Of a DNA stretch of 34,335 nt, positions 98-25,188 are shown piece by piece. The stretch is from contig CAJKVX010000002.1 of NCBI GenBank assembly GCA_905203455.1, positions 1 to 34,335 of the forward strand, written 5' to 3'. The stretch comes from an uncultured Eubacteriales bacterium. GTDB taxonomy: Bacteria > Bacillota > Clostridia > Christensenellales > UBA1242. A model generated the notes under the pieces. The model did not search any database. It was not told the DNA's origin and worked only from the letters and a program-made list of their open reading frames with translations. Numbering within the stretch: position 1 is the stretch's first letter; each line of letters starts with the position of its first letter. The position numbers were made by a program, and so were the translations under genes.

Positions 98-2212
98 TTA
101 CCTTACAGAAACCTTGCTTCTTACCCTTATTATAAACACAATTGCAAGAACGCCTAATGCACAAGCAATAATAATTAAGATAATGCCTGCGGCATTTTGT
201 TGTTGCGTGATGCTGAAACTTAGTTGAGTTGTGTTATTCATTGCGTCTGTTAACTGAACTGTATAATTGCCTAAATCGCCACTGCCATAATTAAGAGTGT
301 AGGTTAAAGGGCGGGTTTCATCTTGGTTGTAAATTGTTGTGTTTAATATAACACTGCCGTTTCTGTAAACAGTGACCCTCATGCCAGCCTCTTGCGTTGC
401 AACTCCTGTTAAGGTTAGGTTAACTGCAGAAGTTGTTCTTTGGTTGTTTGAAATGCCAGTAATTGAAGGGGCAGACCTTGCAATGTTAAGCCTGAAATTT
501 GACTCAACATAACCGTAAATTCCGTTATAAGTTACAAGGTTTTGTATATTATTAGTTGCTGTGTAACGCTGTGTTAAATCATAACGGGTTATAATGTTTG
601 TTTGAATGTTGTCTTGCGGTAAAGGATAGGTTACACCTTCAAAATCATAAACAGAGCGAACTGACCTTAAAATTTGGAACATTATTAGTTTAACGCTGCC
701 ATCGTTAAAAGTTATTCTTATGTTATAAGACGCTTCATCTTCAAGAACGATTGAAAGATTGTTTACACCAGATGATGAATCATAAACAGTTTGTTGTGAA
801 ATAACATCTCCGCTTGATTCAATGTGATAACTTGTGTTCACAATTGAGGCTACATTATTTGAAAGATTATAAAAATTTAAATTTACCGCTCTGTTGACTC
901 TTTGCCTTTCAATGTCTGGTCGGGTTTCGGTATTAGGGTTGTAATTAACTTCTGAGACAATAAAGTTTACATTATATTCACCGCTAATTTCATTTCCAAG
1001 TTCATCGGTTTTTGGGGTGGTGGTGGTTGCTGTGCAATAAAACCCACCTTGATGATTAGCGTCAGTGTTTGTGAGATTAAAGTTATATTCAATTATGTTT
1101 GCAAGCGGATAAATTCCAGAGCCTTTGATATTGTCATTATAACTAGAAGGTTTTGAGCCGTTATAGGTGTTGTCATAAATTCTGACCTTATAACTGCCTG
1201 ATTCACTAAAAGTTAAGGTTGCCGTGTTATTAGAACTGGAAATACCGAAAAGACTAGTGATTTCTCCGTCTTCTGTTTTTCCAAAATCAAGTTTATCATT
1301 AAAGTTGTTGTAAACTTTAAGTTCATATTTTTCGGTGTCATCGCCTGCCGTTTCTTCACTTGATGTGTTAAGTTTATATTCAAATCTTAATGAATAAGCC
1401 TTGCCGTTGTGCCAAAAATCAACATAAAGTTTGTTGATGTTTCTGTTTAAATTTATTGAATTGAAATTTAATTTTAATCTAATTATGTCACTATATGTTT
1501 GGTTTTCACCGGGTCTTATAATGTCATTTTCATTTCTGTCGGGGTCTGAATTTAAAATTCGATACCAATTAATGCCGAAGTTATCATAATTTATATTTTT
1601 TGCTTGGAAAATGTAAAAAGTGAAAGAATAGTTAATTGCTTCAATGTCAGTATAATTTGTTTCAATTGTTATTTGTGTGAAAACATCGCCGCCTATTGTT
1701 GCACCAAGTTTCACAATATCGTCAGTGTCATCTCCGCGAATAAAAGAAATTGTTGTTGTTTCGCTAGTAGGAGTAAAATTAGGGAGAGAATATGTTGTTT
1801 TTGTTACTGTTATTGGGTAAGTATATTCGCCGTTATCATCCACAACAGGGGTGATGTTTACTGAGCCAACCAAATAAAGAACATTAACAAGTTGTGGGTC
1901 AGTGCCTGTTATTGTTCCGTCTGGGTCTGTTGTGGCAAAAGGAACAACTTGTTGAGAAAAGTTCTCTTTTGCGACAACAAACCCTTCTGTGCCATCAGAC
2001 TGGGTTATGTTGCAATAAGCTACAATGCTTGACGCTTGTGAAAGTAAGTCTTCACTTAATTGTTGGTCTTCTGCGCTTACAGTTTTTGTTGTTTGTGCTG
2101 TAACTGGGCATAACGCACCAAAGCAAACTGCAAAAACCATAATAACTGCTAATAATATGTGTTTTAAATTGAATTTTTTCATTCCCGTACCTTTACTTTT
2201 AGTTTTGTCCAT
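98..2212 (-). CDS. Secreted, C-terminally membrane-anchored N/T/S/Y-rich beta-repeat surface protein (candidate adhesin or recognition factor of the T4SS-like locus); no family recognised
   Basis: 704-aa ORF ending TAA. N-terminal signal peptide KKFNLKHILLAVIMVFAVCFGALCPVTA/QTT (signal-peptidase-I type, no canonical lipobox). One C-terminal TM helix AAGIILIIIACALGVLAIVFII followed by basic RVRSKVSVR; no LPXTG. A recurring G-x-Y-x-[VI]-x-[IL]..D strand motif (SGSYKVRIYD, EASYNIRITFND, LGNYTVQLTD) suggests several Ig-like beta-sandwich modules. The gene lies 152 nt downstream of the T4CP gene and is co-oriented with it. ATG at 2182 (MKKFNL...) is an alternative start with an AAAGG upstream. Confidence 0.7.
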   Translation of the reverse strand: MDKTKSKGTGMKKFNLKHILLAVIMVFAVCFGALCPVTAQTTKTVSAEDQQLSEDLLSQASSIVAYCNITQSDGTEGFVVAKENFSQQVVPFATTDPDGTITGTDPQLVNVLYLVGSVNITPVVDDNGEYTYPITVTKTTYSLPNFTPTSETTTISFIRGDDTDDIVKLGATIGGDVFTQITIETNYTDIEAINYSFTFYIFQAKNINYDNFGINWYRILNSDPDRNENDIIRPGENQTYSDIIRLKLNFNSINLNRNINKLYVDFWHNGKAYSLRFEYKLNTSSEETAGDDTEKYELKVYNNFNDKLDFGKTEDGEITSLFGISSSNNTATLTFSESGSYKVRIYDNTYNGSKPSSYNDNIKGSGIYPLANIIEYNFNLTNTDANHQGGFYCTATTTTPKTDELGNEISGEYNVNFIVSEVNYNPNTETRPDIERQRVNRAVNLNFYNLSNNVASIVNTSYHIESSGDVISQQTVYDSSSGVNNLSIVLEDEASYNIRITFNDGSVKLIMFQILRSVRSVYDFEGVTYPLPQDNIQTNIITRYDLTQRYTATNNIQNLVTYNGIYGYVESNFRLNIARSAPSITGISNNQRTTSAVNLTLTGVATQEAGMRVTVYRNGSVILNTTIYNQDETRPLTYTLNYGSGDLGNYTVQLTDAMNNTTQLSFSITQQQNAAGIILIIIACALGVLAIVFIIRVRSKVSVR

Positions 2213-2364
2213 ATTTTAATAAATAATTTAAAAATAACTAATTAATTTGTGTAAGTAATTAATTAAATTTCATTTTTATTATCTTATTTCATTTCTGCTT
2301 GCACCATTGTGCGCTTGGTGGCACTTACACAACGGTGTGCTTATTTGTGTTTAGCAAAAGTTTT

Positions 2365-4359
2365 TTAACTTTCTGTGCCTAAAACAATGCTGTTTCGCTT
2401 TTTAATGTCATAGAAAATTGCCTGCTCATTTAACCTTCTGCCTGGAACAAATGGGGTTTCCATTTCGCCATATTTATAAATTTTGTTTTTAAGTTCAAAA
2501 GCAGGGGTTATGGTTGAGCGAATAGGGAAGTATTGGAAGATTTTTGTTATGTTTTCGCCAAGCGGAATTTTGTCAAGGTCGCTTGCGTAAACAAGTGGTC
2601 TGCTTTGGAAAGAGGTGCTTGTGCTTGGACCACTTGCATCTTTGCCGTCTTTGCCTTTTGAACCACTGTTTTTGCTGTCAACCTCAATGGTGTAGTTGCC
2701 AAGTTCTTCACTAAACTGCTTTCTTGTTTCAAGGTCAGGCGTGCCATAAAACAGCGTTGCCTTGCATTGCCCACGAACAATTGCTGCCGTTTCTTTGCCA
2801 TAAACATTATCTAGTTGTGAATATGACTGAATTGCCATGTTCATGTATATCCAACGGCTTCTTCCAACGGTTATCATTTTGTCAAGTTGACCAACCTTAG
2901 GCATGTTGGCAAACTCATCAAGCAAGTAAAACATTGGGCGTTTCAAATGCGCCATGTTGTCTGAATTTGTGCTTTCATTTATTCTTGCTTTTCTTACAAA
3001 CTCTTTATATGACTGAGAAATGCAAACGCTTGCAAGACTGTATCTTGTTGCACGCTCATCAGGAATTTTAATAAAGAAGGCAGTTGGGCGGTCATCAAAC
3101 TCGCTAAATTTCAATTGGTTTTTAGCAGTAAGCAGGCAAATTCCGTTATCTGCAAACATGCTAAGTTTGTTTGAAAGTGTGCTCATGTAACCATCTCTTG
3201 TTGTTTTTGCCTGAGATTGGGTTATGTGAACAGTAAGTTGTCTTGTTTTTGAAATTGGGCTTCTGCCGTTAAAATATTGCTTGATGTATTCAAAGTCATT
3301 TTCTTTGTTCATTGCAATTTTATAGGCGTTATAGAAGTTATATTTATCAACAGTCATGCCAAGTTTTTCATTTTCACTGTCTTCAAGCATGGCAATTAAA
3401 ACTGCCATGAAATAATCTCTTGCACCATCTTCCCAACTTGATTCTTTTTCATTAGTGGTTGGGCAAATGGCTCCGCAAATGTCTTTAAGGTCTTCAAAAC
3501 AATCGTCTCTTATTTTAGATTTTTCAACTTCAACTTCAACAAGTGTGTCACGAAGGTTTGAAAAAGCCTTGCCTGAAAATTCAAACCACTCAGAGTTATC
3601 AATGCTTCCAACTTTTTTAAGGTTTGGATATTTGCTGATTGGGTCATTCATGTGCTTTAAAATTTCTTGTTCAAGATGAAGTTGTTTTTGCCAGTTAATA
3701 TAAATATATTCAAGTGGGTTCCATTGCAAACTGTTGTATGGGTCAACAAGGTCAAGAAGCAAAACATTATAGCCACTGTCTTTAAGTTTTTGGCTGTGGT
3801 GAGCGTAAATTTCACCCTTTGGGTCAGTTATAAACATTGAAGGTTTGTTTTTATATTCACTTATAATCTGCACGGCAGGTTCAATAAATGAAACAGTTTT
3901 GCCCGTTCCTGTTGCACCAACAATTAAAGTGTGGCAGTCAGGTGTTAGCCTTACTTTAAGTTTGCCCTTTTTGTATTTAGCGTAAAAGGGAATTCCACGG
4001 CTTGAAACATTTTTAAGTTCGTAAAAATCATAGGCACGAAAGGCTTTGTCTAGTTCACTATCAGTCATGAAATGTTGATTTTCAAGTTCGTCTTTACCTT
4101 TCATTTTAACTTTATCTTTACTGCTTCCTGAGCCAACAACAAAGTTTAAAAGGCCAATAACCAAAGCAATCCCCTCAATTATTGTAAACAAAAGAATTGT
4201 TGTTTCATGGCCAACATATTCACTGATAAGTGCAGTGTCAAATGTGTGAGCATCAATAAGCATTGCTAGAATTACGCTTAAAATGTAACCAAAAATTAAG
4301 CAACACACAATAAATATTAAAACGGTTGTAAACTTAGTTCCTTTTTTGCTATCTGCCAT
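2365..4359 (-). CDS. virD4: Type IV coupling protein (VirD4/TraG/TraD-family ATPase)
   Basis: 664-aa ORF. Two N-terminal TM helices (FTTVLIFIVCCLIFGYILSVILAMLI; TTILLFTIIEGIALVIGLLNFVV). Walker A TLIVGATGTGKT. Walker-B region MFYLLDEFANMPKV followed by GRSRWIYMNMAIQSYSQLDNVYG, the typical T4CP signature. Strong RBS AGGAGA 7 nt before the ATG, and a perfect TATAAT (minus strand, 4383-4388) upstream. Confidence 0.9.
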   Translation of the reverse strand: MADSKKGTKFTTVLIFIVCCLIFGYILSVILAMLIDAHTFDTALISEYVGHETTILLFTIIEGIALVIGLLNFVVGSGSSKDKVKMKGKDELENQHFMTDSELDKAFRAYDFYELKNVSSRGIPFYAKYKKGKLKVRLTPDCHTLIVGATGTGKTVSFIEPAVQIISEYKNKPSMFITDPKGEIYAHHSQKLKDSGYNVLLLDLVDPYNSLQWNPLEYIYINWQKQLHLEQEILKHMNDPISKYPNLKKVGSIDNSEWFEFSGKAFSNLRDTLVEVEVEKSKIRDDCFEDLKDICGAICPTTNEKESSWEDGARDYFMAVLIAMLEDSENEKLGMTVDKYNFYNAYKIAMNKENDFEYIKQYFNGRSPISKTRQLTVHITQSQAKTTRDGYMSTLSNKLSMFADNGICLLTAKNQLKFSEFDDRPTAFFIKIPDERATRYSLASVCISQSYKEFVRKARINESTNSDNMAHLKRPMFYLLDEFANMPKVGQLDKMITVGRSRWIYMNMAIQSYSQLDNVYGKETAAIVRGQCKATLFYGTPDLETRKQFSEELGNYTIEVDSKNSGSKGKDGKDASGPSTSTSFQSRPLVYASDLDKIPLGENITKIFQYFPIRSTITPAFELKNKIYKYGEMETPFVPGRRLNEQAIFYDIKKRNSIVLGTES

Positions 4360-4445
4360 TAAAGTTTCTCCTATATGTTTTTATTATAATGCTATTTTAT
4401 CAACAAAATAGAAAATTTTAAGTTGTTTCAATTTGATTAGATAGT

Positions 4446-4672: not shown

Positions 4673-4969
4673 TTACTGGCTTGCCCATTGTGCAAGTGGT
4701 TCACGAATTGCATAAAGCAGAACAACCAACCCCAAAATTACTACAAGCCCAATAACAAAACTGATTATCTTTTTTTGGGCTGCCTTGCGTTCATCAGTGG
4801 TGGCGGCTTTTGAATAGCCAACACCCAAAATTATTGAATAAATTAGCCCGCACACCAAAATGATGCCAATGGCATAAGGCCCCAAAAGGTCAATGGCTTT
4901 ATAAATTGGGCTGGTAACAGCACTGTCGCCAAGTAAAAAAGAATTTGAAATAGATTTTAAAATGCTCAT
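4673..4969 (-). CDS. Small two-helix membrane protein, VirB2/TrbC pilin-like (paralogue P1)
   Basis: 98 aa counted from ATG 4969 (MSILKSISNSF...). AAAGGGA lies 4 nt upstream of that ATG. The 111-aa ORF in the track starts at a TTG (5008) that falls inside the predicted promoter spacer. The protein has two hydrophobic helices (AIGIILVCGLIYSIILGV; IISFVIGLVVILGLVVLLYAI) joined by a short charged loop YSKAATTDERKAAQKK. The core GLIYSIILGV-x-Y-x-KA is shared with P2. The functional call rests on architecture and gene context only. Confidence 0.65.
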   Translation of the reverse strand: MSILKSISNSFLLGDSAVTSPIYKAIDLLGPYAIGIILVCGLIYSIILGVGYSKAATTDERKAAQKKIISFVIGLVVILGLVVLLYAIREPLAQWASQ

Positions 4970-4998
4970 AATTTCCCTTTTTATTATGTTTATTTTTA

Positions 4999-5027
4999 AT
5001 GTTAGCAAATTGCATTCAATTTTGCAA
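4999..5027 (-). promoter_or_regulatory. Sigma-70-type promoter for P1 (TTGCAA-17 nt-TAACAT)
   Basis: Read on the minus strand: ttgcaa (5027-5022), a 17-nt spacer, then taacat (5004-4999). This sits about 30 nt upstream of ATG 4969. Confidence 0.45.
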
Positions 5028-5715: not shown

Positions 5716-5781
5716 GGGTGGGGTTGTTAGGTAAGGGAATTGTAAAAAATTGAAAAAATTGTAAAAAAGGTATCATTTTGT

Positions 5782-5844: not shown

Positions 5845-6258
5845 ATGAAATTTTTGCAAAGCATGACGAACTTTTTGGCAAGCGGCGAGGGAGCTGGAGA
5901 TTCAACAGTCGGCGGACTTGATAAAGTTGTTAATACCGCTTATGAATCATTCATCGATGTAGTAAACATTGTTTTGCCTATCATTTTAGGTGTTGTTTTG
6001 GTTTTTGGTTTGATTTATTCAATTATTTTGGGTGTTAACTATGCAAAGGCAGAAGACAGCAATGCAAGAGACGAAGCCAAAAAAAGATTAATTGGTGCAA
6101 TTGTTGGTATTGTTGTTGCATTAGTGTTAATGGCAATTATTTGGCTTGTTCTTACTCAAGTTAATTTGGAAGGTTTGTTCCAAGTTCCTACCGAGACACC
6201 AGGTGGTGACGAAAAAACATCATCTGCAATCATTGGCATGATTTCTAAATTGTTTTAA
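5845..6258 (+). CDS. Small two-helix membrane protein, VirB2/TrbC pilin-like (paralogue P2)
   Basis: 137-aa ORF with RBS AAGGAG 8 nt upstream of the ATG. Helices IVLPIILGVVLVFGLIYSIILGV and LIGAIVGIVVALVLMAIIWLVL are joined by the loop NYAKAEDSNARDEAKKR. The N-terminus (MKFLQSMTNFL vs MSILKSISNSF) and core are shared with P1. P2 has an extra C-terminal tail of about 35 aa. It is the first gene of the plus-strand unit and is followed by two terminator hairpins. Confidence 0.7.
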   Translation: MKFLQSMTNFLASGEGAGDSTVGGLDKVVNTAYESFIDVVNIVLPIILGVVLVFGLIYSIILGVNYAKAEDSNARDEAKKRLIGAIVGIVVALVLMAIIWLVLTQVNLEGLFQVPTETPGGDEKTSSAIIGMISKLF

Positions 6259-6517: not shown

Positions 6518-9500
6518 GTGAAAAGTTCAGCACTTTATTTGGGAATGAAATTTATGCAGTTTTTTGCAAACGGCACAACTGTTGATGGTGAAATTGCAAA
6601 CACCACCATTCTTGACACTGTTTTTGGTTGGCTAGTAACAGCGGGGTTGTTTTTGTGGAACTGGATAATGACTTTTATTTACACCATTGTTAAATTCGCC
6701 CTTAACATTGTTGATTTTATTCAGTTTTTTGTTCAACGCCTTGTGGGTGTTGATTTTTGGACTAATACTAACTCAACCCTTGCTGACCTTGGCGAGTCTG
6801 ACATAATTTTTAGGTTTATGTTCAGTGAGGAAGTTTTAAGGGTTTTCAGGCTTATTATTATTATTGCCATTGTGCTTTTAATTGTGTTTAGCATTATTGC
6901 CATTGTTAAAAGCGAATATTCAAACGCAACAACTGGCAAAGGGGACAAAAAGGGAATTTTAACATCTTCATTAAAGGCAATTTTTTTGGTTGTTTTAATT
7001 CCTGTTATGTTAGTTTTTGGCTTGCTTGCAAGCAATGCAGTTTTAGCATCAATTTTAAACGCTGTTCAGCCTGAAAACAACAACCTTACCATTGGTGGGC
7101 AAATTTTTGTTGCAAGTGCATATGGGGCTAACCGCTACCGAACTTATGCTGATGATGGCAAAAGATATCCTGCAACCTATTCATACACATTTGGATATAA
7201 CCATTACACAGTTGATGGAATGCATTATTATGTTGTGATAGGCAGTGATATGGTTTACATTGTTCCAAGCGAATATGATGGAACGCCTGATTTTAACAGT
7301 GAAGTTGAAACTGCGTCTTTACAAAATTTAGTGGCAAACCCAGAGTTAAGTTCACTTTCAAACAAATCAAATTCTGGCAGTGTTTATTATCAAACAAGTT
7401 CAATGTTTGAAACAATTATGCCAACGCATTACAAAAGAGATAATCCGCTTTATGCGTTTGTTTATTATTTTCCTGAAAGCGTTAGCGGAAATGACTATAC
7501 CTATTATCTTGCGGCCTTTGATGAGAGCGACGGAATTGATAAACTTGCAAAATACCATTATCTTACAGGTGTTTTAGGGGCAGACATTCAAACAAGCAAC
7601 CTTGCAAGATACCAGCAAAATGGCATTTGGAATATGCTGCCATCAATCAACCATGAAGATAATGTTTGGCATTCAACATCAATTGTTCTTGATGATTGTG
7701 GGCAAAACCATGAAATTGTTCAAATGGCTTACAACACTTGGGGCGTTGCACCCGCTTTTGATGATTATGTTTACTCTTTAGAGCAATCTGTTACTCAAAA
7801 TGTTATTGAGTGGACTTCTGCAAGTGGAATAACCCTTCCAAACGCACTTTATTACACTAACAACATCTCAACCTGGACAAGGTTCGATGGTGGTGAATTT
7901 GGTTTTGTTCCGCTTTCAGTGGAATATGAAATAATGGCTGATTTTATTGACTTTATGGTTAGAATGGGGGTTCAGGCATACATTGTTAATAGCCAAAGTC
8001 CGCTTATTGATTGGAGCGGTGTTAACGAAAACAACTATTTTCAAAACGAAGAAACTGGGCTGGTTGAACTTTGTGTTAATTATGCTGACCTTGGCAGTGT
8101 GGTTTACAAGCCAACCAACACTGACTCTGAAGCAAAGGGCGCAATATATTTGATGTGTTTGTTTGATACGGCAACAGGAAGATATGTGCCTATTGTTCCA
8201 AACAGAGATTATTACAATGAAAATGGAAAATTTACATTTGATAGTGATTTCTATAACAGCAACACCAATGAAGAGGGGCTTGTTATTGCAAGGGGTGTGT
8301 TTGACAGTTCTTACAGCACCAACCCAACCATAATTGAAGAAAGATATGTTGATGATGATGGCAACAGTGTAACAAGCGGAACTGCTGTTTATGTTAACAT
8401 CACAAATGGGTCTGAAAGTGTGAATGAGGCTGAAATGCTTGGTCGAAATTTTGTTAATGTTAGTTTTGCAAGTGGTTCGGCAATTAGCCAATTGTTAACT
8501 GGTGGGCTTGCAAATGACGGCTCAGGCGTTTTGAATTACACAGTTAATTCAGACAACATTTTAGCCCAAAATTTCATTTCAAGTGATGATGGTTTTCCAG
8601 TTTTCAGAGACAGTGTTTTTAAAGAAACATTGCCTGCTGGATATAGTTATAGTAATAATGGAGACAGGGCAATTAGTGTTACTTACAGTTCTGCTTCAAA
8701 TTGCGTTTACGCAAATGTTAATGACACATCAAACAGGACAGTGCAAATTATATTAAGACCTCATCAAATGCCAAACGGCAACATGGTTATGCTTGTGCAA
8801 ACAACGGTTAACGGGCAGTTTGTAAATGCGTTTAGTGTGCTTGGGCAGGTTACAAACTTAAACCAATACAGCACCAGCATTTATGACCAAACTGGAACCA
8901 TAATTGCAACTGGTGATGGCACAAACATTTTAATTGATGATTATTTTAACAATCAAGGGTCATATAACCTTGAAGCAAGCGAAGTTTACGCAGTTTATAA
9001 TTTAAGCAATTCATTTGTTATTAATCCTTCAAGTTTGCTTGGGCTTATTGAAGTTAATGAAACGGTTGTTGGTCAAAATGCTACCATTCTTCAACTTACA
9101 AGCAGTGGTTATAACAGATACAGAGTTTGGACGGGCGCTGACCAAACAGGCAACTGCTTTGATATATATATTAATAATAATAAGTTATCTGTTATTCCTT
9201 ATCATATTTATGGGCTAACAACTCAAGGTTCAAGTGTTGATGTTTCAGGTTTGGCGATTAATAACATTGTTGGTTATGGTGGCGGTAACACCTATGTTAG
9301 ATATAACGGGTCAACATATGTTTTAAATAGTGGAACAAACAATTTTGGAGTTAATTATTTTTATTTACGAAGCGAGGAAGTAACTACATTTACTGAAAGA
9401 TATTATAATGTTAGTTTTTATGACCCTTTTGCTTACAGACTAATTGATGAAAATGGAAATGTTGTTAACGCAGATGAAATTAAAAATCTTAAAGGTGAAA

Positions 9501-16454: not shown

Positions 16455-19400
16455 ATGAAGTTTATGTTAGCAAACAAAATAGTAGAGGGGCTGATGTGTC
16501 AAAATAAGTTGGCACAGGCCTTTTCTTTGCTAACATCAACCGAAACTGACAGAGAAGTTATAACAAGCATTGAAAACACCACGGTTGCAAGCGCCCTATT
16601 TCAAGGTATTTTAGATTGGTTGTTATCATTCTTTTCAAATTTTATTTATGCAATTTGTAAGTTTGCAATGAATATTATTGATTTTTTTCAGGCCCTTGCT
16701 TACAAATTGATAGGCGTTGGAACAATTGATGAATATCAAGTTGTTGACCAAAACAACCCGTTAATTAAATTTCTTACAAGCGAAGTAGTTTTAGATGTGT
16801 TTATAAGCATCATGATTGTGGCAATTGTGTTTTTGATTGTTTTCACGATTATTGCAATTGTTAGAAGTGAATATCAAACGGCAACTGGTGGTGATGACAA
16901 TTCAGCCTCAAAAGGCAGAATTTTAAGAAGGGTTTTCAGAGCACTTGGTGCAATGATTTTGTATCCTTGCGTTTTGCTGGCATCAATAATTTTGATAAAC
17001 GCAATTTTAGCAAGCGTTATTTCGGCATTTAATGTTAACCCTAATGCAACGGTTGGAAGCAACATTTTCATTGCGTCAGCTTATAACGCTAATAATTACA
17101 GGAACTATGCAATAAACAATTCAAGAATTCCAATTTTAATTAATTTTGAAGACCCGCAAATGTATACCTTAAACGGAGATAGCGGTTACACAAGCGAAGA
17201 ACTTGATGAAATTTATAAAGCGTGGGAAGAAACAGGCAAAAGCATTTATTCAAGGTTTGCATACAGTTCTTTTAGCACTTTTAGTGACACTGTTTATTAC
17301 AAGAATAATATAATTCATAACAATAATGATTATTCTGGGTTTGAAAAGTTTGTTTGCACGCCAGAGCAATATCAGGTTATGGCTGATTTTATTGATTATG
17401 CCGTTGCAAACAACATGACCTTTTACATTAAGGCTTATGACGACCCTGATGTTGACTGGGGCTATGTTAGCAACAGTGTTTACAACCCAATGACGCAAAC
17501 TTTCACAATCAACTACACAAACTCAACAGGAGGCATGGGAACAGGCGATTATTACACCATGGTTTACCAAGCAGAAGAATTTGAGTTTGACACGCCAATG
17601 CAGGCTATTATTCAAACAATTAACCAAATTCTTTCAATTGGCGAGTTTGAAGATTATCAGTTTAAAATGCTTGAAAGGGTTGATGATGAGCGCAATTTGG
17701 TTGAGTGGAAAACCGAAAAAGTTGTTTTAAAACTTAGTGAGAATTGGCAAACAGCACCAACTGCTCTTGACCAACTTATTTTGTATGAATATTCAAGAAA
17801 ACTTGCAAACAACACCTTTAATGATTATTACATTGAAGATTTTCTTCCTGCTAGTGATGGGGTTGAACTTAAAGTAATGACTCTTCACAACACAAGGTAT
17901 TCACCTTCACTTAAACAATATGTTGAATATGCAACACACTATGTTTGTTATATTAATGGGTCATACTATGCAGTAAGTGAAAATCAAACTTATCTTGATG
18001 GTGAGACACAAACCATATATACAATTGATGAAGACCTTTTAACAGGAACCTATTTTGAAGCAAACTCAACAACAGTAAAACAAGAATATGTTCCAACTGC
18101 AAGTGAAGAATTAGATGTTGTTACCATTGATGCCCTTGGGGGCATTAGGGTGAAACTGCCTACTGATGAAAACGGCAAGGCAAGTCTTTATGCTGATTTA
18201 CGGGTGAATTATAACAGTGGAGACAGCAAGTATGATGAAATTTACAACACCAGTGTTTCAGGGGCAGAACTTGATGACGGCATTAAAGTTTATGTTGACA
18301 CCCTTGAAGATGTTTGCGTAACAGGAACATGGACTGAAAAGATTTATAATGATTTGCAGGTTATTTATAAAGACATTAACATAAACAACCTTATAAACAC
18401 TGACCAATGGCTAAGTGCGTTTAGTGAAATGTATAACTCTCAGTCTTACATTACAACTGAGAATGGTCAAACCGCAACCACAACATTTAACACAACTTTA
18501 ATTCACCCATTGGGGCTTATTCAAGCCGAGTTGTTTTTAGGTAATGTTGAAGAAGGGCAATATTATAACAGTTATGCTGATTTTATTTACAGCAGTTCAT
18601 ATAATGACAGCATTATTAAAGCCTTGTTTATAAGCCTGCTTGGTGAAGAAAATTACAGACAGTCTTACCAGCAATATCAAGTATACATGGACATTTTTAA
18701 TTGCATGATGAGTTCAGTGCTTGATGAAACTGCCTTTTATGAATTTTTTGACATTGTTGATGAAACAAATCAATCTTTGCAACTTTACACTTATAAGGCT
18801 TATCTTTCAAGTGTTTTGCTTTCAACAGACTTTGGCAATTATCTTTATAACATTGCTGACACTATAATGAAAAGCAATAATGTTTTAAACTACATTTTGC
18901 AAAGAGAAATTGATGAAAACGGCAATGTAACAAGTGTTCAATATGTCGAATTTTATGATATGATTCATTCTATTCAAGATATTGAAACAGTCTACGGAAA
19001 ATATTTTAATTTCAGCGAAAACACTAATGCTTATGGAATTTCTGCAATACAAGGTATAAAAGATGGTGCAATTGAAGAGTTTATGGCAGACTATCCAGAT
19101 GCTGCTGCGTCTTTAACCGATGCTGAAAATATTTTAAACAGTATGATAGATAGTTACACCACAACTCTTGAATACATTAACACTTTTGAAACTGTAAACG
19201 ACTATTGGCAGGGGCAAGAATTTGAACATGGTGATGATTATGAGTTTTTAGAGGCCCTTGAAATTTACATGAGCGAAGATGGTTTTGCTAGGTCTTGGGC
19301 AATGGGGCCGAATGGAATGCTTGATAAATCTAGCATTGCAAATGAACTTAGCGAAATTGTTTCATGGTATGATAAAAATGAACTTGTTGCAAATGATATT

Positions 19401-22400
19401 ATCACATTTTTTGGTGGAGCAGTTAGCGTTGAAGAATTAGAAGCGGCATACAGATATCTTTTGCTAGATGAAAATGATGAAGGTTATGACGAAGCCTTGC
19501 AGGCGGGTCTTGAAGCACAAGCAGAAATTGAAGATTATGTAAGCTTTTTAAGAGTTTATCGCTGGCTTAGTGGTGTTGCACCAAATGGGGTTATTTTTCC
19601 AGTTAAAATGTATTATGTGTTTAATGCTTACAGCAAACTTAACGACTTTTTAAGCCTTATTGACACCCTTCAATTCTTAAATGAACAGCAAACTGATGCT
19701 AGTGTTGAAGTGGCAACAATTGATTTTACCTCTGCCTATAACCTTTTGGGGCATGCTGATGAGTTTGAGTTAACCGTTGAAAATTGTGTTGATTTGGCTT
19801 TAAGTGTTAGTGACAATGTTTGGAAAGAAATTTTAGGTGAAAACTTATTTAACCAAATTGATGATGTTTTAAACATCAGCAATGGAAGGCTTGTTGAAGT
19901 TAGTGCATATTGTGAAAATACAAGTGGCGAAAGATACACATCTAGTGAAGAAATTATGGCACTTAAAAAATTGTGGTATCAAATGTTGCTTATTTATAAT
20001 GATGCTGACATTACAATTGATGAACAAAACAATTTAAGCGCTCAGGTTAAAAATGCAAGAGGAATTATTAAAAATTATGTTGGGGCACAATTAAAACTTG
20101 ATACACTTAATCTTTATAATGTTTATTATTCAATAACAGCGTTTAGCAGCCAAGTTTTAAATGAAACGCTGGTGTTAAACATTAATAACAGAAAATATGT
20201 TGCACAGGTTAACATGAGCAGTGCGAAGTTTGTTGAATATATTTTAGGGTATGACAAACTTGTTGAATATGGCTACACTCCTGTTTATATTGATGACACT
20301 TATCAAGGAATTTTAAGTCAAACATCTGTTACAATTAATGGCGAAGAGATTTACACAACTGACACATGGGCTGAACTTAAACAATTTTTAAACAAGTTTG
20401 GTCAGGCTTGTATTGACATTTCAAATAAATCAACATTTGCAAGGCTTGAAAATGATAAGGTTGATACATTCACGCTTGATTTGTATACAATAACTGGGTC
20501 TAACCAAGTAACAGAAACCACACTTTCTCTTTACCTTGCACAGTTTATTGCAGATAATCTGTCAACTGACATTCTTACAAGTTTTGTTAAAATTGATTCA
20601 ACAATAGTAAACACTAACAATGAAAGCGTTATAAGAAATGAAGTTAAAAGGGTTCTTGCAAACACAAGAGCGCAAGACCCACAAGCGTTTAGATCAATTG
20701 TTGTTGATTTGCTTGATTATTTAGGGTTAGATAAAGATTTTGTTGCAAGAATTTGTGGGGTTGACACAACAGATGTTAACTTTAAAGGCTTCACTCTTTC
20801 GCAATATAAAACGGCAGCAATGAGATTGCTTTATGACTATCAAGAGTATGCCGAAGATAGTTCTTACGCAAATCAACAGCGTTATGTTACCCTTGTTTAT
20901 TTGTGTTGTGCTGATTGGCAAGAAAGTGCATCATTTAATGGTGATAAATGGGTTAAGCCAGAAAATAGTCAAGATTTAAACACTTTTTACAATTCAAACA
21001 TAACATCGCTTAAAAAAGATGATTATTCATTGGGGCTTATTATGCGAATGAGCGGGCTTGAAAACAGAAACCCTAATGAACTTGTTGGCTTAGAGTTCAC
21101 TGTTGACCTTACAAGCAGTGTTAAAAGTGAAGAAAACGGAGACGTGTTTATAATTTGCACATATGACGCAAATGAAAGAAAATATTATCCATTCCTTATG
21201 GCTAACAATGAGTTAAATGGAATTGAACAAAATGATGTTACTCAGGAATATATTGATAAATTCATAAGAGGCACTGGCCTTACCATGCCTTACACAAATT
21301 ATTATGGCGGGGTTACAGATGAAAATGGAAATGTAACTGCACAGTGGTATCCTGTTGTTGCGAAGGGTATTGTAACAGAAGACGGAATTCCAACCACAAT
21401 TAAAGAAAGCAATGGAGACATTGTTTTCTATCGAAATGATGTTGTTATTCGTGATGCTTCAGTTTTGCAACTTTCAACATATTTTTCAGACACTTCTGCA
21501 ATAATTTATCGAGGGGGAATTATAAGTGTTACTGCAAATGCAATAACAAAGGCAATTTATGGAAAAACTCTTTCAGAAATTGCAATAAGCAGAATTCCAA
21601 GAATTGCACTTGAAAGTGGTTTGCATTTTGCTTACGGCAATGATTATAATGAAGTTGCAACTGTTGATGATGGAGTTATTTACATTGATTATAACTTCTA
21701 TGAAAACAACGGGCTTGCAATGGAATTTTTGTTTAACAGCACTCAAATTAACATGCTGATTCTTGTTTTAGCAGTTATTGCATTGTTTAAGGCATTGTGG
21801 TCAATGGTTTGGGGGCTTATTTCAAGAATTTTTGATGTTACTGTTCTTTCAATGCTTTCACCAGCAGTGTTTGCAACAATGGCCCTAACCCCCGAAGAAA
21901 AGAAAGATGGGCAATATGCTGACAAGCCGTTTGTTTATGATAACTGGCTTGCAACGGTAAGAGATAAGTTGTTGTCTGTTTTTGGGTTTGCAATTGCAAT
22001 TAACATTTTCTTTATTATGGTGCCAATTATAAGGGAATTCAACTTGTTTAGCAGTGCATCAGCATTTGCTAACATTCCACTTGTAAGAAACATTTCAACA
22101 AATGCACTTAATGCAATTGTTCAAACTATTTTGCTTATTTGTGCAATTTACACAATAAAATCTGCTCCTAAATTATTTGAAGGGTTTATTGGGGTGAAAA
22201 GTAATTTGCAAGACAGTGGTGACAACACTTTGAAAAATGTTAAGGGTATTGAAGCAATGGTCAGAGATTATACCTCTGGCAGAGCAATAGTTCGTGCAAA
22301 AAATAAGGCGATTGGTTTAGCAAAATCAATGCCAGGGGCTGAATTGGGGGCTGAGGCTGCAAGTAAATATAGAATTGCCAAAACTAGCGTTCAGGCAAGA

Positions 22401-22580
22401 CTGTCAGCAGCCCACACAAAAGATGCTCTTATGGCAAATGGAGTTAGCAAGAAAGACGCAAAACGCCTTGCAAAAACCGCAAGACAAACGCTTGTAAATA
22501 GTCAGCAGGCTGATGAAGCCCGCAGAAGACAAAGAAGGGCAGCATACAGAAAGGCTGCATTTGGTGAGTTTGAAAAGTAA
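16455..22580 (+). CDS. Giant polytopic membrane protein B (2041 aa), paralogue of A and C, with a roughly 1535-aa ectodomain
   Basis: Uninterrupted 6.1-kb ORF starting 26 nt after virB4. N-module motifs: ICKFAMNIIDFFQAL, RSEYQTATGGDDN and IFIASAYNANNYRNYAINNSRIP. Shared ectodomain anchors: YQVMADFIDYAV, VVAKGIVTEDGIPTTIKESNGDIVFYRND and IYIDYNFYENNG. C-module from about aa 1765: LISRIFDVTVLSMLSPAV...VRDKLLSVFGFAIAINIFFIMVPII. Short basic tail. Confidence 0.85.
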   Translation: MKFMLANKIVEGLMCQNKLAQAFSLLTSTETDREVITSIENTTVASALFQGILDWLLSFFSNFIYAICKFAMNIIDFFQALAYKLIGVGTIDEYQVVDQNNPLIKFLTSEVVLDVFISIMIVAIVFLIVFTIIAIVRSEYQTATGGDDNSASKGRILRRVFRALGAMILYPCVLLASIILINAILASVISAFNVNPNATVGSNIFIASAYNANNYRNYAINNSRIPILINFEDPQMYTLNGDSGYTSEELDEIYKAWEETGKSIYSRFAYSSFSTFSDTVYYKNNIIHNNNDYSGFEKFVCTPEQYQVMADFIDYAVANNMTFYIKAYDDPDVDWGYVSNSVYNPMTQTFTINYTNSTGGMGTGDYYTMVYQAEEFEFDTPMQAIIQTINQILSIGEFEDYQFKMLERVDDERNLVEWKTEKVVLKLSENWQTAPTALDQLILYEYSRKLANNTFNDYYIEDFLPASDGVELKVMTLHNTRYSPSLKQYVEYATHYVCYINGSYYAVSENQTYLDGETQTIYTIDEDLLTGTYFEANSTTVKQEYVPTASEELDVVTIDALGGIRVKLPTDENGKASLYADLRVNYNSGDSKYDEIYNTSVSGAELDDGIKVYVDTLEDVCVTGTWTEKIYNDLQVIYKDININNLINTDQWLSAFSEMYNSQSYITTENGQTATTTFNTTLIHPLGLIQAELFLGNVEEGQYYNSYADFIYSSSYNDSIIKALFISLLGEENYRQSYQQYQVYMDIFNCMMSSVLDETAFYEFFDIVDETNQSLQLYTYKAYLSSVLLSTDFGNYLYNIADTIMKSNNVLNYILQREIDENGNVTSVQYVEFYDMIHSIQDIETVYGKYFNFSENTNAYGISAIQGIKDGAIEEFMADYPDAAASLTDAENILNSMIDSYTTTLEYINTFETVNDYWQGQEFEHGDDYEFLEALEIYMSEDGFARSWAMGPNGMLDKSSIANELSEIVSWYDKNELVANDIITFFGGAVSVEELEAAYRYLLLDENDEGYDEALQAGLEAQAEIEDYVSFLRVYRWLSGVAPNGVIFPVKMYYVFNAYSKLNDFLSLIDTLQFLNEQQTDASVEVATIDFTSAYNLLGHADEFELTVENCVDLALSVSDNVWKEILGENLFNQIDDVLNISNGRLVEVSAYCENTSGERYTSSEEIMALKKLWYQMLLIYNDADITIDEQNNLSAQVKNARGIIKNYVGAQLKLDTLNLYNVYYSITAFSSQVLNETLVLNINNRKYVAQVNMSSAKFVEYILGYDKLVEYGYTPVYIDDTYQGILSQTSVTINGEEIYTTDTWAELKQFLNKFGQACIDISNKSTFARLENDKVDTFTLDLYTITGSNQVTETTLSLYLAQFIADNLSTDILTSFVKIDSTIVNTNNESVIRNEVKRVLANTRAQDPQAFRSIVVDLLDYLGLDKDFVARICGVDTTDVNFKGFTLSQYKTAAMRLLYDYQEYAEDSSYANQQRYVTLVYLCCADWQESASFNGDKWVKPENSQDLNTFYNSNITSLKKDDYSLGLIMRMSGLENRNPNELVGLEFTVDLTSSVKSEENGDVFIICTYDANERKYYPFLMANNELNGIEQNDVTQEYIDKFIRGTGLTMPYTNYYGGVTDENGNVTAQWYPVVAKGIVTEDGIPTTIKESNGDIVFYRNDVVIRDASVLQLSTYFSDTSAIIYRGGIISVTANAITKAIYGKTLSEIAISRIPRIALESGLHFAYGNDYNEVATVDDGVIYIDYNFYENNGLAMEFLFNSTQINMLILVLAVIALFKALWSMVWGLISRIFDVTVLSMLSPAVFATMALTPEEKKDGQYADKPFVYDNWLATVRDKLLSVFGFAIAINIFFIMVPIIREFNLFSSASAFANIPLVRNISTNALNAIVQTILLICAIYTIKSAPKLFEGFIGVKSNLQDSGDNTLKNVKGIEAMVRDYTSGRAIVRAKNKAIGLAKSMPGAELGAEAASKYRIAKTSVQARLSAAHTKDALMANGVSKKDAKRLAKTARQTLVNSQQADEARRRQRRAAYRKAAFGEFEK

Positions 22581-22610: not shown

Positions 22611-25163
22611 ATGAGCATTACAACAAAGTTAGGAATGTTTATAAATAACATCACTCACACCATATTAAACGGTGCGGGTGGTGTTGCCACGCTTGAAAAT
22701 AGTGGGGATAGTTCAATTTGGGATACTGCACTTACCTTTGTTATTAACATCATAACAAACAGTTGGAGAATTGTTCTTACAATTATCATGAGGCTGCTTA
22801 CTGTTGTTGGCAGATTTATATTAAACATTATTGATTTCTTTTTCATATTCATAAGGCAATTTTTGGGAATGAGTGCTGATTATTCAACCCTTGAAAGTTT
22901 GGGAGGGGACGCAGTGTTTGACTTTGTGTTTAGTGACACAGTGTTAAACATTATTAAATACATTTTCATTCTAGGCATTGTTCTTATTATTGTTTTTTCA
23001 ATAATTGCCATTATTAAAACTGAATATAGTGATGTTACTGGCGGGGATAACAGCAAAAAACATGTTTTAGTTAATGCTCTTAAAAGTTGTTTTTTGATGA
23101 TAATTGTGCCTGTGTTGTTCGTTTTTTCAATAATTTTCAGTAACGCAATTCTTTCAGCACTTTACATGGCCACAGCAGGTGGGCAAGACATTAGTGTTGG
23201 CACTTACATTTGGCAGGCAAGCACATATCAGGCCAACGCGTATCGGTCTTATGCTGATGATGACCAAAAAATTCCAATAACCTACACCTTTTCAAACACA
23301 AATGATGACGGAAGTGAAATAAATTTTGACACAATTAACACTGACGGCACAATAAGTGACCTTGAAAATGCCTTTTTGGCATTTAGAAATCAGTCAGGCT
23401 TCATGCAGGGGTTTAAAACGGCGGTTATGTTTAATGAAAATGAATTTTTCAGTATTGACCAAATTGAGGCCGCCGAAGAGGCAATAAGAGAAAGTTCAAA
23501 CGGGCAGGAACACTCGGCATACTATGCTGTTTATGATAACAATTTGTATTCAAAAAAAGTTGAATATTATGTTATGGCAGATGCAATTGATTATTGCTTA
23601 GTTAAAAATTATGATGTTCCAAGCGGATTCTTCTTTATGTCAATTAATGATGTTTATGAGAACCATTGTGAAGTTTTTGGAACAGACACTGTAACAGATT
23701 TGCCGATTGAGAAAACTGTTGTTGACGGCGTTGAGGGGTATGTTACCCGTGTTGCTTATGATGGTGAACAAGAAGAAACCGTTTACTTTTCACCAGCAGA
23801 AACCTTTGATGAAGCACAAGGCACAGTTTACACATTGTGTTATTCACAACTTCAAACAATAACAACCCCAGAGGGAGGGCAGGTTGAAGTTGAATTATTT
23901 ATGCCGTTTATTCATGGTGGAGACTTTGGGTTTAAAAGTGATTATGTTACAAGCAATGGGTCACTTGTTATTGCAAAAGGACTTTTTGATGCTGAGGGGC
24001 ACCCAACAGCAATAAGAACGAATGACACAGGAATTATTGAATTTTATAGAGATGATATCTATAGCCCAACACTTCTTGACCTTTTTCCAACCATAACCTA
24101 TGAAAAAATAGATGGTTTAAGTGACATTGCTTGGTTTATAAGGAGTGGTTTTGAAGTTATCACAGGGCTTGATGGCGACCAAATGATTCCTCACATTTAT
24201 GTTAATTTCAGTGCATTTGTTGCATTTACTAAAACTGAAAAGGTTGTGGCAAGGCTTGATAGTGGCAATTTTGCGGTTGATTTTAACATGAGTGACCCAC
24301 ATCTTTCAACAGGTAATTTATATGCTGAAAACAAAATAAATCCGCTAATTTTAATTGCGGGCGGAATTGTTATTCTTGAAGCGCTGTTTGTTGTTGTGTT
24401 TGCCTTAATTGGAAGAATTTTTGATATGGTTGTTCTTGCAATAACTTACCCAGGGGTGGTTTCAGCAATTCCACTTGATGGCGGAAAAATGCTTTCAGGG
24501 TGGACGGAGTCATTTTTAAACAAACTTGTTGTGGTTTATTCTGTTACAGTGGTTTTAAACTTTTCGGTTTTAGTAATGCCAATAATTTGGTCAATGGAAA
24601 TGTTTACACCAAAAATGGTTGCAGATTCAATAGGCATTTCATTAATTGTTGGCGGGTGGACGGCATCGTTTTTGAATTTACTTATTAACACAATGTTTAC
24701 ACTTGTTATTTTCTCAATGATAAGAACATTTTCAAAATATCTTAACTTTATGCTTTCAGGAACAACTCTTAGTGATGTTAAAGCAGCAATTAAAAAGAAA
24801 AAGGCAAAAAGTGTTGATGATTATGTCAACAAAAATAATGATGACGCATTTGCTACTGGTGAAGAAATTTGGGGTGAAGTGAAAACTGCTGCAAAAACAA
24901 CAGCGGTTGTTGCTGGGGCTGTTATTTCGGGTCAGGTTTTATCAACTGCTGCCAAAGCGGTTACTGACAGACTTGCCGATTACATTCCTGGGGCAGCAGC
25001 AGTTACTGTTATGAATGACATTAAAAATGGCAAAGGTTTTAAAAATGGCATGGAAAGAAGGGCTCAAAACAGAACTGGCCTTATGAACGATTTAACAGCC
25101 GGCATTAACACGCCACGAGATTTAAGCAACAGACTTGGCAGTTTTCAAAAAAATGATAAATAA
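22611..25163 (+). CDS. Polytopic membrane protein C (850 aa), the minimal paralogue of A and B, with a roughly 350-aa ectodomain
   Basis: RBS AAGGGTGG. N-module motifs: VGRFILNIIDFFFIF, KTEYSDVTGGDNS and IWQASTYQANAYRSYADDDQKIP. Ectodomain anchors: YYVMADAIDYCL, LVIAKGLFDAEGHPTAIRTNDTGIIEFYRDD and FAVDFNMSD. C-module from about aa 575: LIGRIFDMVVLAITYPGVVSAIPLDGGK...LNKLVVVYSVTVVLNFSVLVMPII. The tail motif YIPGAAA matches FIPGSAI in A. Confidence 0.85.
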   Translation: MSITTKLGMFINNITHTILNGAGGVATLENSGDSSIWDTALTFVINIITNSWRIVLTIIMRLLTVVGRFILNIIDFFFIFIRQFLGMSADYSTLESLGGDAVFDFVFSDTVLNIIKYIFILGIVLIIVFSIIAIIKTEYSDVTGGDNSKKHVLVNALKSCFLMIIVPVLFVFSIIFSNAILSALYMATAGGQDISVGTYIWQASTYQANAYRSYADDDQKIPITYTFSNTNDDGSEINFDTINTDGTISDLENAFLAFRNQSGFMQGFKTAVMFNENEFFSIDQIEAAEEAIRESSNGQEHSAYYAVYDNNLYSKKVEYYVMADAIDYCLVKNYDVPSGFFFMSINDVYENHCEVFGTDTVTDLPIEKTVVDGVEGYVTRVAYDGEQEETVYFSPAETFDEAQGTVYTLCYSQLQTITTPEGGQVEVELFMPFIHGGDFGFKSDYVTSNGSLVIAKGLFDAEGHPTAIRTNDTGIIEFYRDDIYSPTLLDLFPTITYEKIDGLSDIAWFIRSGFEVITGLDGDQMIPHIYVNFSAFVAFTKTEKVVARLDSGNFAVDFNMSDPHLSTGNLYAENKINPLILIAGGIVILEALFVVVFALIGRIFDMVVLAITYPGVVSAIPLDGGKMLSGWTESFLNKLVVVYSVTVVLNFSVLVMPIIWSMEMFTPKMVADSIGISLIVGGWTASFLNLLINTMFTLVIFSMIRTFSKYLNFMLSGTTLSDVKAAIKKKKAKSVDDYVNKNNDDAFATGEEIWGEVKTAAKTTAVVAGAVISGQVLSTAAKAVTDRLADYIPGAAAVTVMNDIKNGKGFKNGMERRAQNRTGLMNDLTAGINTPRDLSNRLGSFQKNDK

Positions 25164-25188
25164 AAATGCAGTAAAAACTGCATTTTTT
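25162..25188 (+). terminator. Rho-independent terminator closing the plus-strand T4SS-like operon
   Basis: Immediately after the TAA of protein C: tgcagt (25167-25172), loop aaaa, then actgca (25177-25182). Flanking A5/T6 runs extend the stem. Confidence 0.8.

Follow-up and report, generated by a model that had tools for sequence, protein, structure and literature searches.

The T4SSs closest to the one described here (T4SS, type IV secretion system) are those of the integrative and conjugative elements (ICEs) of mycoplasmas. Chromosomal DNA is transferred by these elements, whose identified VirB/VirD4 homologues do not include a relaxase (PMC12857230, PMC6030558). They encode, in this order, a pilin-like protein (Mbov_0395), a polytopic membrane protein (Mbov_0396), and a VirB4 with an N-terminal transmembrane (TM) region (Mbov_0397). 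A Spiroplasma plasmid has the run Mbov_0396, a small open reading frame (ORF), Mbov_0397, and a VirD4-like gene. Here we describe a T4SS locus with the same families in the same order at positions 98-25,163 of a contig from an uncultured Eubacteriales bacterium (CAJKVX010000002.1). The whole stretch analyzed, called the window below, is 34,335 bp long with ~35% G+C, and its long ORFs read through in translation table 11, the standard bacterial code.

Components of the locus and their relatives

The locus contains eight genes in two divergent units. An earlier note on this DNA had listed the eight ORFs, and all of their coordinates were correct when checked. The minus-strand unit consists of pilA (4673-5008), virD4 (2365-4359), and, as its last gene, a gene for a 704-aa surface protein (98-2212). 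The plus-strand unit starts with pilB (5845-6258), followed by G1 (6518-13450), virB4 (13534-16428), G2 (16455-22580), and G3 (22611-25163). Since the intergenic gaps along G1-virB4-G2-G3 are only 83, 26, and 30 bp, this run looks like one operon. G1, G2, and G3 encode giant proteins and sum to 15,612 bp, which is 62% of 25,091 bp. The earlier note had put the share of three paralogous giants at about 60%, and their paralogy was evident in BLASTP (E 4e-33 to 2e-15 over the N- and C-terminal membrane blocks).

Both ATPases that had been called from motifs pass the cut-offs of curated hidden Markov models (HMMs). The VirD4-type coupling protein (664 aa; 2365..4359, minus strand) matched the Pfam family T4SS-DNA_transf (PF02534) with 145.7 bits against a cut-off of 20.1, TraG-D_C with 98.8, and TrwB_AAD_bind with 90.5. 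It also matched conju_CD1115 of NCBIfam (NF045973) with 255 against 250. It has two N-terminal TM helices (13-31 and 57-75), a Walker A motif GATGTGKT at 148, and a Walker B motif MFYLLDEF at 476. By its HMM matches, TM anchor, and Walker motifs, it is a type IV coupling protein (T4CP). The VirB4 ATPase (964 aa; 13534..16428, plus strand) matched VirB4_plasma/Mbov_0397 of NCBIfam (NF045975) over residues 8-886 with 601.5 against 590, and it matched the solved C-terminal domain of VirB4 (PDB 4ag5, E = 2.3e-50). Its Walker A motif GRSGSGKS is at 517 and its Walker B motif IIIVIDEA at 758. The full-length match, the similarity to a solved domain, and the Walker motifs place it in the VirB4_plasma/Mbov_0397 family. 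The CD1110 model gave 147 bits, under its cut-off. The best annotated relatives of this VirB4 are from Spiroplasma plasmids and Mycoplasma elements, with ~27% identity to the best Spiroplasma match.

A VirB3-VirB4 fusion had also been proposed. The N-terminal module of VirB4 (residues 1-110, nt 13534-13863, plus strand) has two TM helices (28-46 and 52-70), and the Mbov_0397 model spans this TM region, in agreement with the proposal. The match of residues 18-98 to the VirB3-like TcpE was sub-threshold (E = 0.042, 14.8 bits against a cut-off of 29.9). A fusion is plausible from these features, and it would apparently be a trait of the family.

The two pilin-like genes are paralogous (34% identity, E = 1.7e-14) and each encodes a two-TM hairpin, as expected of the VirB2-like pair in the earlier note. 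PilB (137 aa; 5845..6258, plus strand; TM helices 39-57 and 85-103) matched NF045849, the Mbov_0395 family pilin-like conjugal transfer protein, with 47.6 against a cut-off of 40, and it narrowly missed the Pfam family T4SS_pilin (PF18895; 25.4 against 26.6). PilA (4673..5008, minus strand), assigned by its paralogy to pilB, was under both cut-offs (19.6 bits for T4SS_pilin and 26.8 bits for NF045849). Its translation may begin at the TTG at 5008 (111 aa) or at the ATG at 4969 (98 aa), the shorter form being the one called in two related loci (L078 and L079). The related loci, denoted by L numbers, come from VirB4 relatives in 77 GTDB species representatives. It had been stated that each transcription unit opens with a pilin gene. 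This holds for the window, L001, and L015, the only loci in which pilA is on the minus strand, but not for L011, L013, L017, and L019, in which pilA and pilB are in tandem on the plus strand. In one distant-clade locus (L026:3431-4700) there are three tandem pilin-like paralogues, like the VirB2-like arrays of Patescibacteria (PMC12102498).

The locus thus has the Mbov_0395, Mbov_0396, and Mbov_0397 families of NCBIfam in order, and the suggestion that it is a minimal monoderm T4SS of the mollicute ICE type was borne out. The gene order is that of CDS15-16-17 of ICEA (PMC12857230, PMC6030558). Both systems include a VirD4 and, as a separate component, a surface protein bound to the membrane (CDS5 and CDS14 in ICEA), and VirB1, VirB8, VirB7/9/10, and VirB11 are missing in both (PMC12857230, PMC6030558). 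In the window, no ORF matched a VirB7/9/10, VirB11, relaxase, or integrase family of Pfam or NCBIfam. The two systems also differ. The host of the present locus is a standard-code member of the Clostridia, probably walled, and the chromosomal site is fixed. Neither a DDE transposase nor ParA was found here among the genes scanned. The mycoplasma ICEs have one VirB6-position protein of ~300-350 aa, whereas there are three paralogues of 850-2310 aa here, with ectodomains and tails. Finally, the surface protein here is TM-anchored and has no sequence relation to known families.

The Gram-positive conjugation system of pCF10 (PrgH/I/J/K/L and PcfC) is comparable in its VirD4, as PcfC is also a member of the NCBIfam family CD1115. 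Both systems have a monoderm architecture and a dedicated surface adhesin, the adhesin role being a proposed one here. However, no PrgK-like hydrolase, PrgL-like VirB8, relaxase, or accessory factor is present at our locus, and the membrane cores of the giants have no detectable similarity to PrgH. The locus also has pilin-like genes, while Gram-positive T4SS classes have been reported without virB2 homologues (PMC12102498). The minimal Gram-positive set consists of VirB1, VirB3, VirB4, VirB6, VirB8, and VirD4, and of these the VirB1- and VirB8-like parts were undetected. No VirB1-like hydrolase or VirB8 family matched any ORF or the pieces of the giants, even at E <= 1.

Three giant proteins in the VirB6 position

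The earlier note had recognized none of the giants as members of a characterized family. This was right for their large inserted parts but not for their membrane cores. With the NCBIfam model NF045848 (MMCAP2_0566, cut-off 90), G1 scored 123.3, G3 93.9, and G2 67.3, which is below the cut-off. G1 also scored 90.2 with NF045889 (Mbov_0396), for which the cut-off is 70. G2 was assigned by its paralogy to G1 (E 4e-33 and 2e-29). All three giants match the MMCAP2_0566/Mbov_0396 family as a separate N half with three TM helices and a C half with three TM helices. Therefore, the cores of these polytopic proteins, which flank virB4, are members of the MMCAP2_0566/Mbov_0396 family, that of mycoplasma CDS16 in the VirB6 position. 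Orphan parts appear to be limited to the ectodomains inserted in the giants, their tails, and the surface protein.

The anatomy of the three proteins, all encoded on the plus strand, is the same. G1 (2310 aa; 6518..13450) was delimited with the two NCBIfam models and a TM map. It has an N-core of three TM helices (residues 26-190, nt 6593-7087), an acidic ectodomain (191-1185, nt 7088-10072), a C-core of three TM helices (1186-1335, nt 10073-10522), and a basic tail rich in coiled coil and low complexity (1336-2310, nt 10523-13447). Its loop of ~1000 aa has a net charge of -61 and an isoelectric point (pI) of 4.3, and its tail of ~980 aa has a net charge of +38 and a pI of 9.6. In G2 (2041 aa; 16455..22580), the N-core (40-195) is followed by an ectodomain of 1555 aa (196-1750, nt 17040-21704), a C-core (1751-1905), and a basic tail (1906-2041). 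The loop has a net charge of -139 and a pI of 4.1, and the tail of ~140 aa has a pI of 10.5. G3 (850 aa; 22611..25163) is the shortest of the paralogues, delimited with NF045848 and an AlphaFold2 (AF2) model. It has an N-core (40-194), an alpha/beta ectodomain of 380 aa (195-575, nt 23193-24335; net charge -42, pI 4.1), a C-core (576-715), and a basic helical tail of ~140 aa (716-850; pI 9.8). In each giant the acidic loop is inserted between TM3 and TM4, and the short TM2-TM3 loops are basic. By the positive-inside rule, this charge bias suggests an extracellular position for the loops and a cytoplasmic one for the tails, in line with the large surface domains that had been proposed for proteins in the VirB6 position.

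Profiles cut from the G3 family recovered both cores and a loop domain common to all three paralogues. In G2 this loop domain is split (~193-357 and ~1614-1774, in the coordinates of the L001 orthologue) by a mostly helical insertion of ~1250 aa. The nested insertion is present in the L001 G2 orthologue and in other near-clade orthologues. The AF2 model of G3 (pLDDT 70.6) has 3 + 3 TM helices around the alpha/beta domain, with pLDDT 80-92 over residues 300-480. The model of G2 residues 380-1579 is mostly helical (pLDDT 78.7, pTM 0.67). Foldseek searches with the full G3 model and with G2 380-1579 against the PDB, and with G2 also against BFVD, returned nothing at E <= 1e-3, and neither a hydrolase nor a VirB8 fold was seen for these two models. 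The only sensible weak match was of R388 TrwI/VirB6 to the membrane part of G3 (probability 0.57, TM-score 0.30-0.34, E ~1).

There was no Pfam or PDB-sequence domain in the loops and tails of the giants or of their orthologues of up to 3852 aa, and a PDB sequence search with G1 and G2 gave no meaningful match. The Pfam family TrbL/VirB6 (PF04610) did not match the giants. In hhalign, the compact-core profile gave a probability of 2% against R388 TrwI and 0.2% against pCF10 PrgH. The label 'VirB6' is thus one of position, topology, and family name, and not of demonstrated homology to canonical VirB6. The G2 family comprises 56 proteins without a Pfam domain or an informative name (one is labelled 'hypothetical protein'). 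The G3-family profile found 2247 representative clusters (50% identity) among 1.84 billion proteins. Of these clusters, 907 had E <= 1e-30, and the members checked had no Pfam domain.

Tandem VirB6 duplication with enlargement by hydrophilic domains is also found in the rvh T4SS of Rickettsiales, which is likewise chromosomal and vertically inherited. In the rvh operons the tandem VirB6 copies are next to virB3/virB4. The rvh T4SS belongs to diderms, includes VirB7/9/10/11, and has no sequence relationship to the present locus, whose system is monoderm and whose largest extension, as judged from the predicted topology, is a central extracellular loop. The resemblance is convergent. 'Extended VirB6' proteins and four VirB6 paralogues in Ehrlichia have been noted in a review (PMC12857230).

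The surface protein (704 aa; 98..2212, minus strand) has a signal-like N-terminal TM helix (19-37), an acidic, N/T/S-rich ectodomain of 640 aa (pI 4.4), a C-terminal TM anchor (677-695), and a basic stub. Its single hint in Pfam was a sub-threshold match to Ig_3, and no canonical lipobox was seen on reading its N-terminus. Its homologues are limited to near relatives (18 proteins, at least 53% identity, none annotated). Most related loci have a variable protein with an N-terminal TM helix or signal downstream of virD4.

Chromosomal context and divergence

The 77 relatives are essentially all metagenome-assembled genomes (MAGs) from gut, rumen, and other anaerobic consortia, labelled Clostridia, Christensenellales, or Christensenella. 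We judged synteny as far as each contig reaches. The order virD4, pilin gene(s), VirB6-like gene, virB4, and then fba/gap/mnmA was seen wholly or partly in most of the 77 loci, with fba/gap/mnmA present in the loci extending that far. The order thus recurs in related genomes, where the earlier note had proposed to look for it. In the window, the right side of the locus (25.4-34.3 kb) carries the housekeeping genes fba, gap, mnmA, trpS, and proS. Beyond the surface-protein gene, loci of the same species and of a sister species (L079 and L080) have murI, ogt, recG, metK, rpsT, holA, and comEC, with comEC ~10 kb from the locus in L080. Relaxase, integrase, transposase, replication, and partition genes were absent from the named ORFs of the window, the flanks in L079 and L080, and the other neighbours scanned. 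No att-type flanking repeats were noticed, though no search for them was made, and neither tRNAs nor Rfam families that could be att sites or regulators were found in the window. G+C is ~0.33-0.39 over most of the window, and the locus borders have no step; the one bump is 0.427 at 5001-6000.

The distances between VirB4 proteins follow those between the adjacent housekeeping proteins. Pairwise VirB4 distances correlated with those of mnmA over 21 loci (r = 0.91), of gap over 10 loci (r = 0.91), and of fba over 9 loci (r = 0.97), with Mantel p = 0.001 for each. The locus is therefore unlike an ICE: housekeeping genes are on both sides, integrase and relaxase domains are absent from the scanned genes, and VirB4 co-diverges with its neighbours. 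The earlier note would have taken flanks with relaxase, integrase, and att sites as marks of an ordinary ICE, and the flanks in L079 and L080 are housekeeping genes without a relaxase, integrase, or transposase domain. Given its chromosomal fixation and its co-divergence with the host across dozens of species, the locus is better read as a domesticated system of the host than as a mobile element. From these comparisons, the locus appears to be chromosomally fixed and vertically inherited at one site in a large clade of Clostridia, uncultured and from gut and rumen.

A wall-less host, which had been considered, is disfavored by the position of murI beside the locus in the closest relatives. Since this glutamate racemase gene adjoins the locus in L079 and L080, a walled monoderm host is probable. 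We ruled out a wall-less or code-4 mollicute on the table 11 ORFs, the Clostridia MAG relatives, and the adjacent murI. The gut 'Hodor' megaplasmids, which have 44-47% G+C and Rep/Par genes (PMC12934698), were ruled out as a source by the ~35% G+C and the core genes found here. Two independent assemblies, the window (1-97) and L078, stop in the same AT-rich low-complexity spacer beyond the surface-protein gene. The shared break is more likely to be an artefact of assembly than the edge of an element, as L079 reads through to murI.

The T4SS of Patescibacteria (Southlakia epibionticum and relatives) has a similar location. It is also monoderm and of a Firmicutes/Tenericutes conjugation-type origin. 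It is chromosomal and lineage-wide, with a cluster without relaxase and with multiple divergent VirB2-like pilin genes (PMC12102498, PMC12857230). The Patescibacteria-type pilin array corresponds to two pilin genes here and up to three in L026. The Patescibacteria systems are reported to have VirB1-, VirB3-, VirB6-, and VirB8-like parts and no VirB3-VirB4 fusion (PMC12102498, PMC12857230). In contrast, no VirB1 or VirB8 was detected in our locus, which has an apparent VirB3-like/VirB4 fusion and giant VirB6 paralogues. The host is also different, a member of the Clostridia, one related assembly of which includes a 917 kb contig.

The genes of the locus evolve at different rates. VirB4 is 89% identical to that of L001 and VirD4 87-88% identical to those of L001 and L080 (fba, 70%). 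Compared with L001 and L080, the cores of the giants are 59-82% identical, their loops 45-61%, their tails 31-40%, and the surface protein 55%. In G1 against L001, the values are 71-82% for the cores, 45% for the loop, and 39% for the tail. Against the same-species locus L079, the ratio of nonsynonymous to synonymous substitution rates (dN/dS) was lowest for virD4 (0.02) and reached 0.35 for the surface protein; within G1, the cores gave 0.03-0.12 and the loop 0.18. These ratios indicate that the ATPases are under strong purifying selection and that the genes of the locus are probably functional and constrained. The G1 tail (10523-13447) is hypervariable within the species, with 64% amino acid identity to L079 and dN 0.27, figures that may include alignment artefacts in low-complexity sequence, while the rest of the locus is 96-100% identical.

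There are two clades of related loci. In the close clade (VirB4 54-90% identical to that of the window), G1, G2, and G3 orthologues are present wherever the contig is long enough, and thus the triplication and the loop insertions predate this clade. In the distant clade (VirB4 42-46% identical), there is usually one VirB6-like protein, mostly of ~850-1000 aa, with a loop of ~120 aa and a C-terminal tail but without the loop domain of the trio. The distant-clade loci also encode unrelated large proteins, one secreted or N-anchored (570-810 aa) upstream and one soluble (800-1900 aa) downstream. The soluble ORF after virB4 was tried as the source of the G2 insertion, for which there was no HMM match, and as a relaxase, for which there was no Pfam or NCBIfam match. 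In two of these loci (L028:1647-4313 and L033:1540-4203), a polytopic glycosyltransferase similar to PgfM1/PgfM2 of Streptococcus is encoded between the pilin gene and the VirB6-like gene, a hint at possible glycosylation of surface or pilin components in these loci.

A compact variant with virD4 on the plus strand, an unknown 515-aa ORF, and virB4 on the plus strand occurs in a different context in L053:6410-12721, L075, and L062:3066-12145. In L062, short VirB6-core fragments are between virD4 and virB4. The variant loci L053, L062, and L020 were considered as true ICEs, but no relaxase or integrase was among the neighbours tested.

Clusters of GC-rich hairpin repeats resembling repetitive extragenic palindromic sequences or miniature inverted-repeat transposable elements (REP/MITE-like) are at 4424-4632 and 5139-5730, with the units GTCATTTCGAGAGAGCGTAAGCGAACCGAGAAATCT and GCTCAGAATGACAGG. 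They are confined to the two intergenic regions flanking pilA and account for the G+C bump at 5001-6000. Since they are missing from the short pilA-pilB spacer of L001, they are recent insertions and not parts of the T4SS. Between pilB and G1, a consensus scan gave two weak terminator-like hairpins 3' of pilB (6274-6301 and 6364-6390, plus strand) and a weak promoter-like site ahead of G1 (6393-6422, plus strand). With these elements, the expression of the pilin could differ from that of the channel operon. Outside the locus, the ORF at 27736-28902, between gap and mnmA, encodes a protein of 388 aa that has a zinc ribbon at its N-terminus and also a TM2 domain, and a short relative of it (170 aa, 33% identity) is at the same position in L060. 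The listed trpS ORF overlaps the end of mnmA by ~100 nt (29922-30022), and its real start is probably further downstream.

Possible function of the system

The reading that we favor, with modest confidence, is that the locus encodes a complete, expressed-looking minimal monoderm T4SS of the Mbov_0395/0396/0397 branch, which would be vertically inherited and non-mobile, with DNA as the slightly favored cargo. In this system, VirB4 would form a hexamer anchored in the membrane by its own VirB3-like hairpin and energize assembly and translocation. G1, G2, and G3, as three non-redundant paralogues of the VirB6 family, would form a heteromeric membrane channel. Their acidic ectodomains (400-1570 aa, between TM3 and TM4) may project through and beyond the wall and may take over the wall-spanning and contact roles of VirB8, VirB1, and separate adhesins. 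The two pilin-like hairpins could line or extend the conduit. The membrane-anchored surface protein would mediate contact with the target cell, as CDS14 does in mycoplasma ICEs (PMC6030558), and VirD4 would pass on the substrate from the cytoplasmic side. A role as docking or nucleic-acid-binding platforms is possible for the basic cytoplasmic tails, especially for that of G1 with its 975 aa.

If the cargo is DNA, the process would be a chromosomally encoded, conjugation-like exchange, comparable to chromosomal transfer in mycoplasmas or distributive transfer in mycobacteria. We slightly favor DNA because the annotated or characterized relatives are all conjugative, because the T4CP retains the TrwB_AAD_bind and TraG-D_C signatures, and because the same T4SS type moves chromosomal DNA in mycoplasmas without an identified relaxase (PMC12857230, PMC6030558). 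Several points weigh against this. No relaxase, origin of transfer (oriT), or other DNA-processing gene is in or beside the locus, where the relaxase scan covers the window and the scanned neighbours of genomes that are all MAGs. Long-term chromosomal fixation is unusual for conjugation genes, and the relaxase-less chromosomal monoderm T4SS that has been studied experimentally, that of Patescibacteria, is thought to be non-conjugative (PMC12102498). Since no VirB8- or VirB1-like part was detected, crossing of a walled cell is speculative. Moreover, the cores could not be shown to be similar to canonical VirB6 (2% and 0.2% in hhalign, probability 0.57 in Foldseek).

The locus could instead encode a dedicated non-conjugative translocator, domesticated as in Patescibacteria or rvh, that delivers proteins, toxins, or other molecules to other bacteria or host cells or exchanges them with such cells. 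The variable giant ectodomains and the surface protein would then set partner specificity. Such a translocator fits the fast evolution of the surface parts, which are 39-61% identical where the ATPases are 87-89% identical. Effector-secreting Rickettsiales also have extended VirB6 paralogues in tandem. Ehrlichia, with its four VirB6 paralogues, is an example of such amplification (PMC12857230). Similar to the Patescibacteria systems, which also have VirB2-like pilin arrays, the locus is chromosomal, lineage-wide, and relaxase-less in cis (PMC12102498, PMC12857230), and its pilins, of which there are up to three in tandem (L026), weakly match the same Pfam family, T4SS_pilin. However, the locus has no visible candidate for an effector, a toxin-immunity pair, or a chaperone, and the sequence relatives of known function are all conjugative. 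A review describes the known roles of Gram-positive T4SSs as almost entirely unidirectional DNA translocation, and whether dedicated effector translocation exists among them is a long-standing question (PMC12857230). A translocator of this kind is the main rival to the favored reading, though less likely than it.

A machine for DNA uptake or release, comparable to Helicobacter ComB or the gonococcal genetic island, is very improbable. It would also be a chromosomal T4SS without a relaxase in cis, and the comEC gene ~10 kb away in L080 suggests that the lineage probably handles exogenous DNA. However, the ComEC pathway would already serve uptake, and the large adhesin-like surface parts suggest cell contact. 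VirD4 is present here and is the most constrained gene, while ComB-type uptake systems are not known to have a VirD4 coupling protein. An ordinary ICE of the mollicute or Firmicutes type, active or decaying and integrated here by chance, is largely refuted and hardly credible: all recognizable parts are in families named after ICE or plasmid proteins, and mycoplasma ICEs likewise have no identified relaxase (PMC6030558), but the locus has housekeeping genes on both sides in its closest relatives, with a right flank that recurs in many loci, co-diverges with adjacent core genes, has no integrase, DDE transposase, partition, or replication gene among the genes scanned and no G+C step at its borders, and its ATPases appear to be under strong purifying selection.

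Going beyond the favored reading of a non-mobile minimal T4SS, the system may have been domesticated clade-wide into a core organelle, in which the giant trio would be a new wall-spanning contact apparatus working without VirB1 or VirB8 in routine cell-to-cell exchange. The exchange would be either relaxase-independent transfer of chromosomal DNA or an exchange of molecules with partner cells. We consider this whole combination possible, though short of probable. If it is true, this would be the second independent non-mobile monoderm T4SS with a host function, after that of Patescibacteria.

Our literature search found no prior description of such a locus in Christensenellales or Clostridia. 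As all recognizable parts come from families already known, the system as such is not of a new kind, and it looks like a conjugation machine retained by the host lineage for its own use. What is new is the chromosomal fixation and lineage-wide conservation in Clostridia, a system in a probably walled cell in which no VirB1 or VirB8 was detected, the pilin-like genes in a Firmicutes system, and the three giant proteins in the VirB6 position, which have split cores and structurally orphan ectodomains. Two gaps have been pointed out in a review: Gram-positive T4SSs are nearly all known as DNA-transfer machines on mobile elements, and the roles of 'extended VirB6' proteins are to be explained (PMC12857230). 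The locus bears on both, as a fixed, host-co-diverging monoderm T4SS with a cluster without relaxase in dozens of gut and rumen species. From the compact VirB6-like proteins of most far-clade loci to the fixed giant trio, the loci form a natural series for the expansion of a channel protein by nested insertions. The giant family, with its 2247 clusters, is also a large body of gut-metagenome sequence that is surface-exposed and lacks annotation. If the cargo is something other than DNA, the system would help to answer the question of effector-type T4SSs in Gram-positive bacteria. If it does exchange chromosomal DNA, this would affect how recombination and strain structure are interpreted in abundant uncultured Clostridia.

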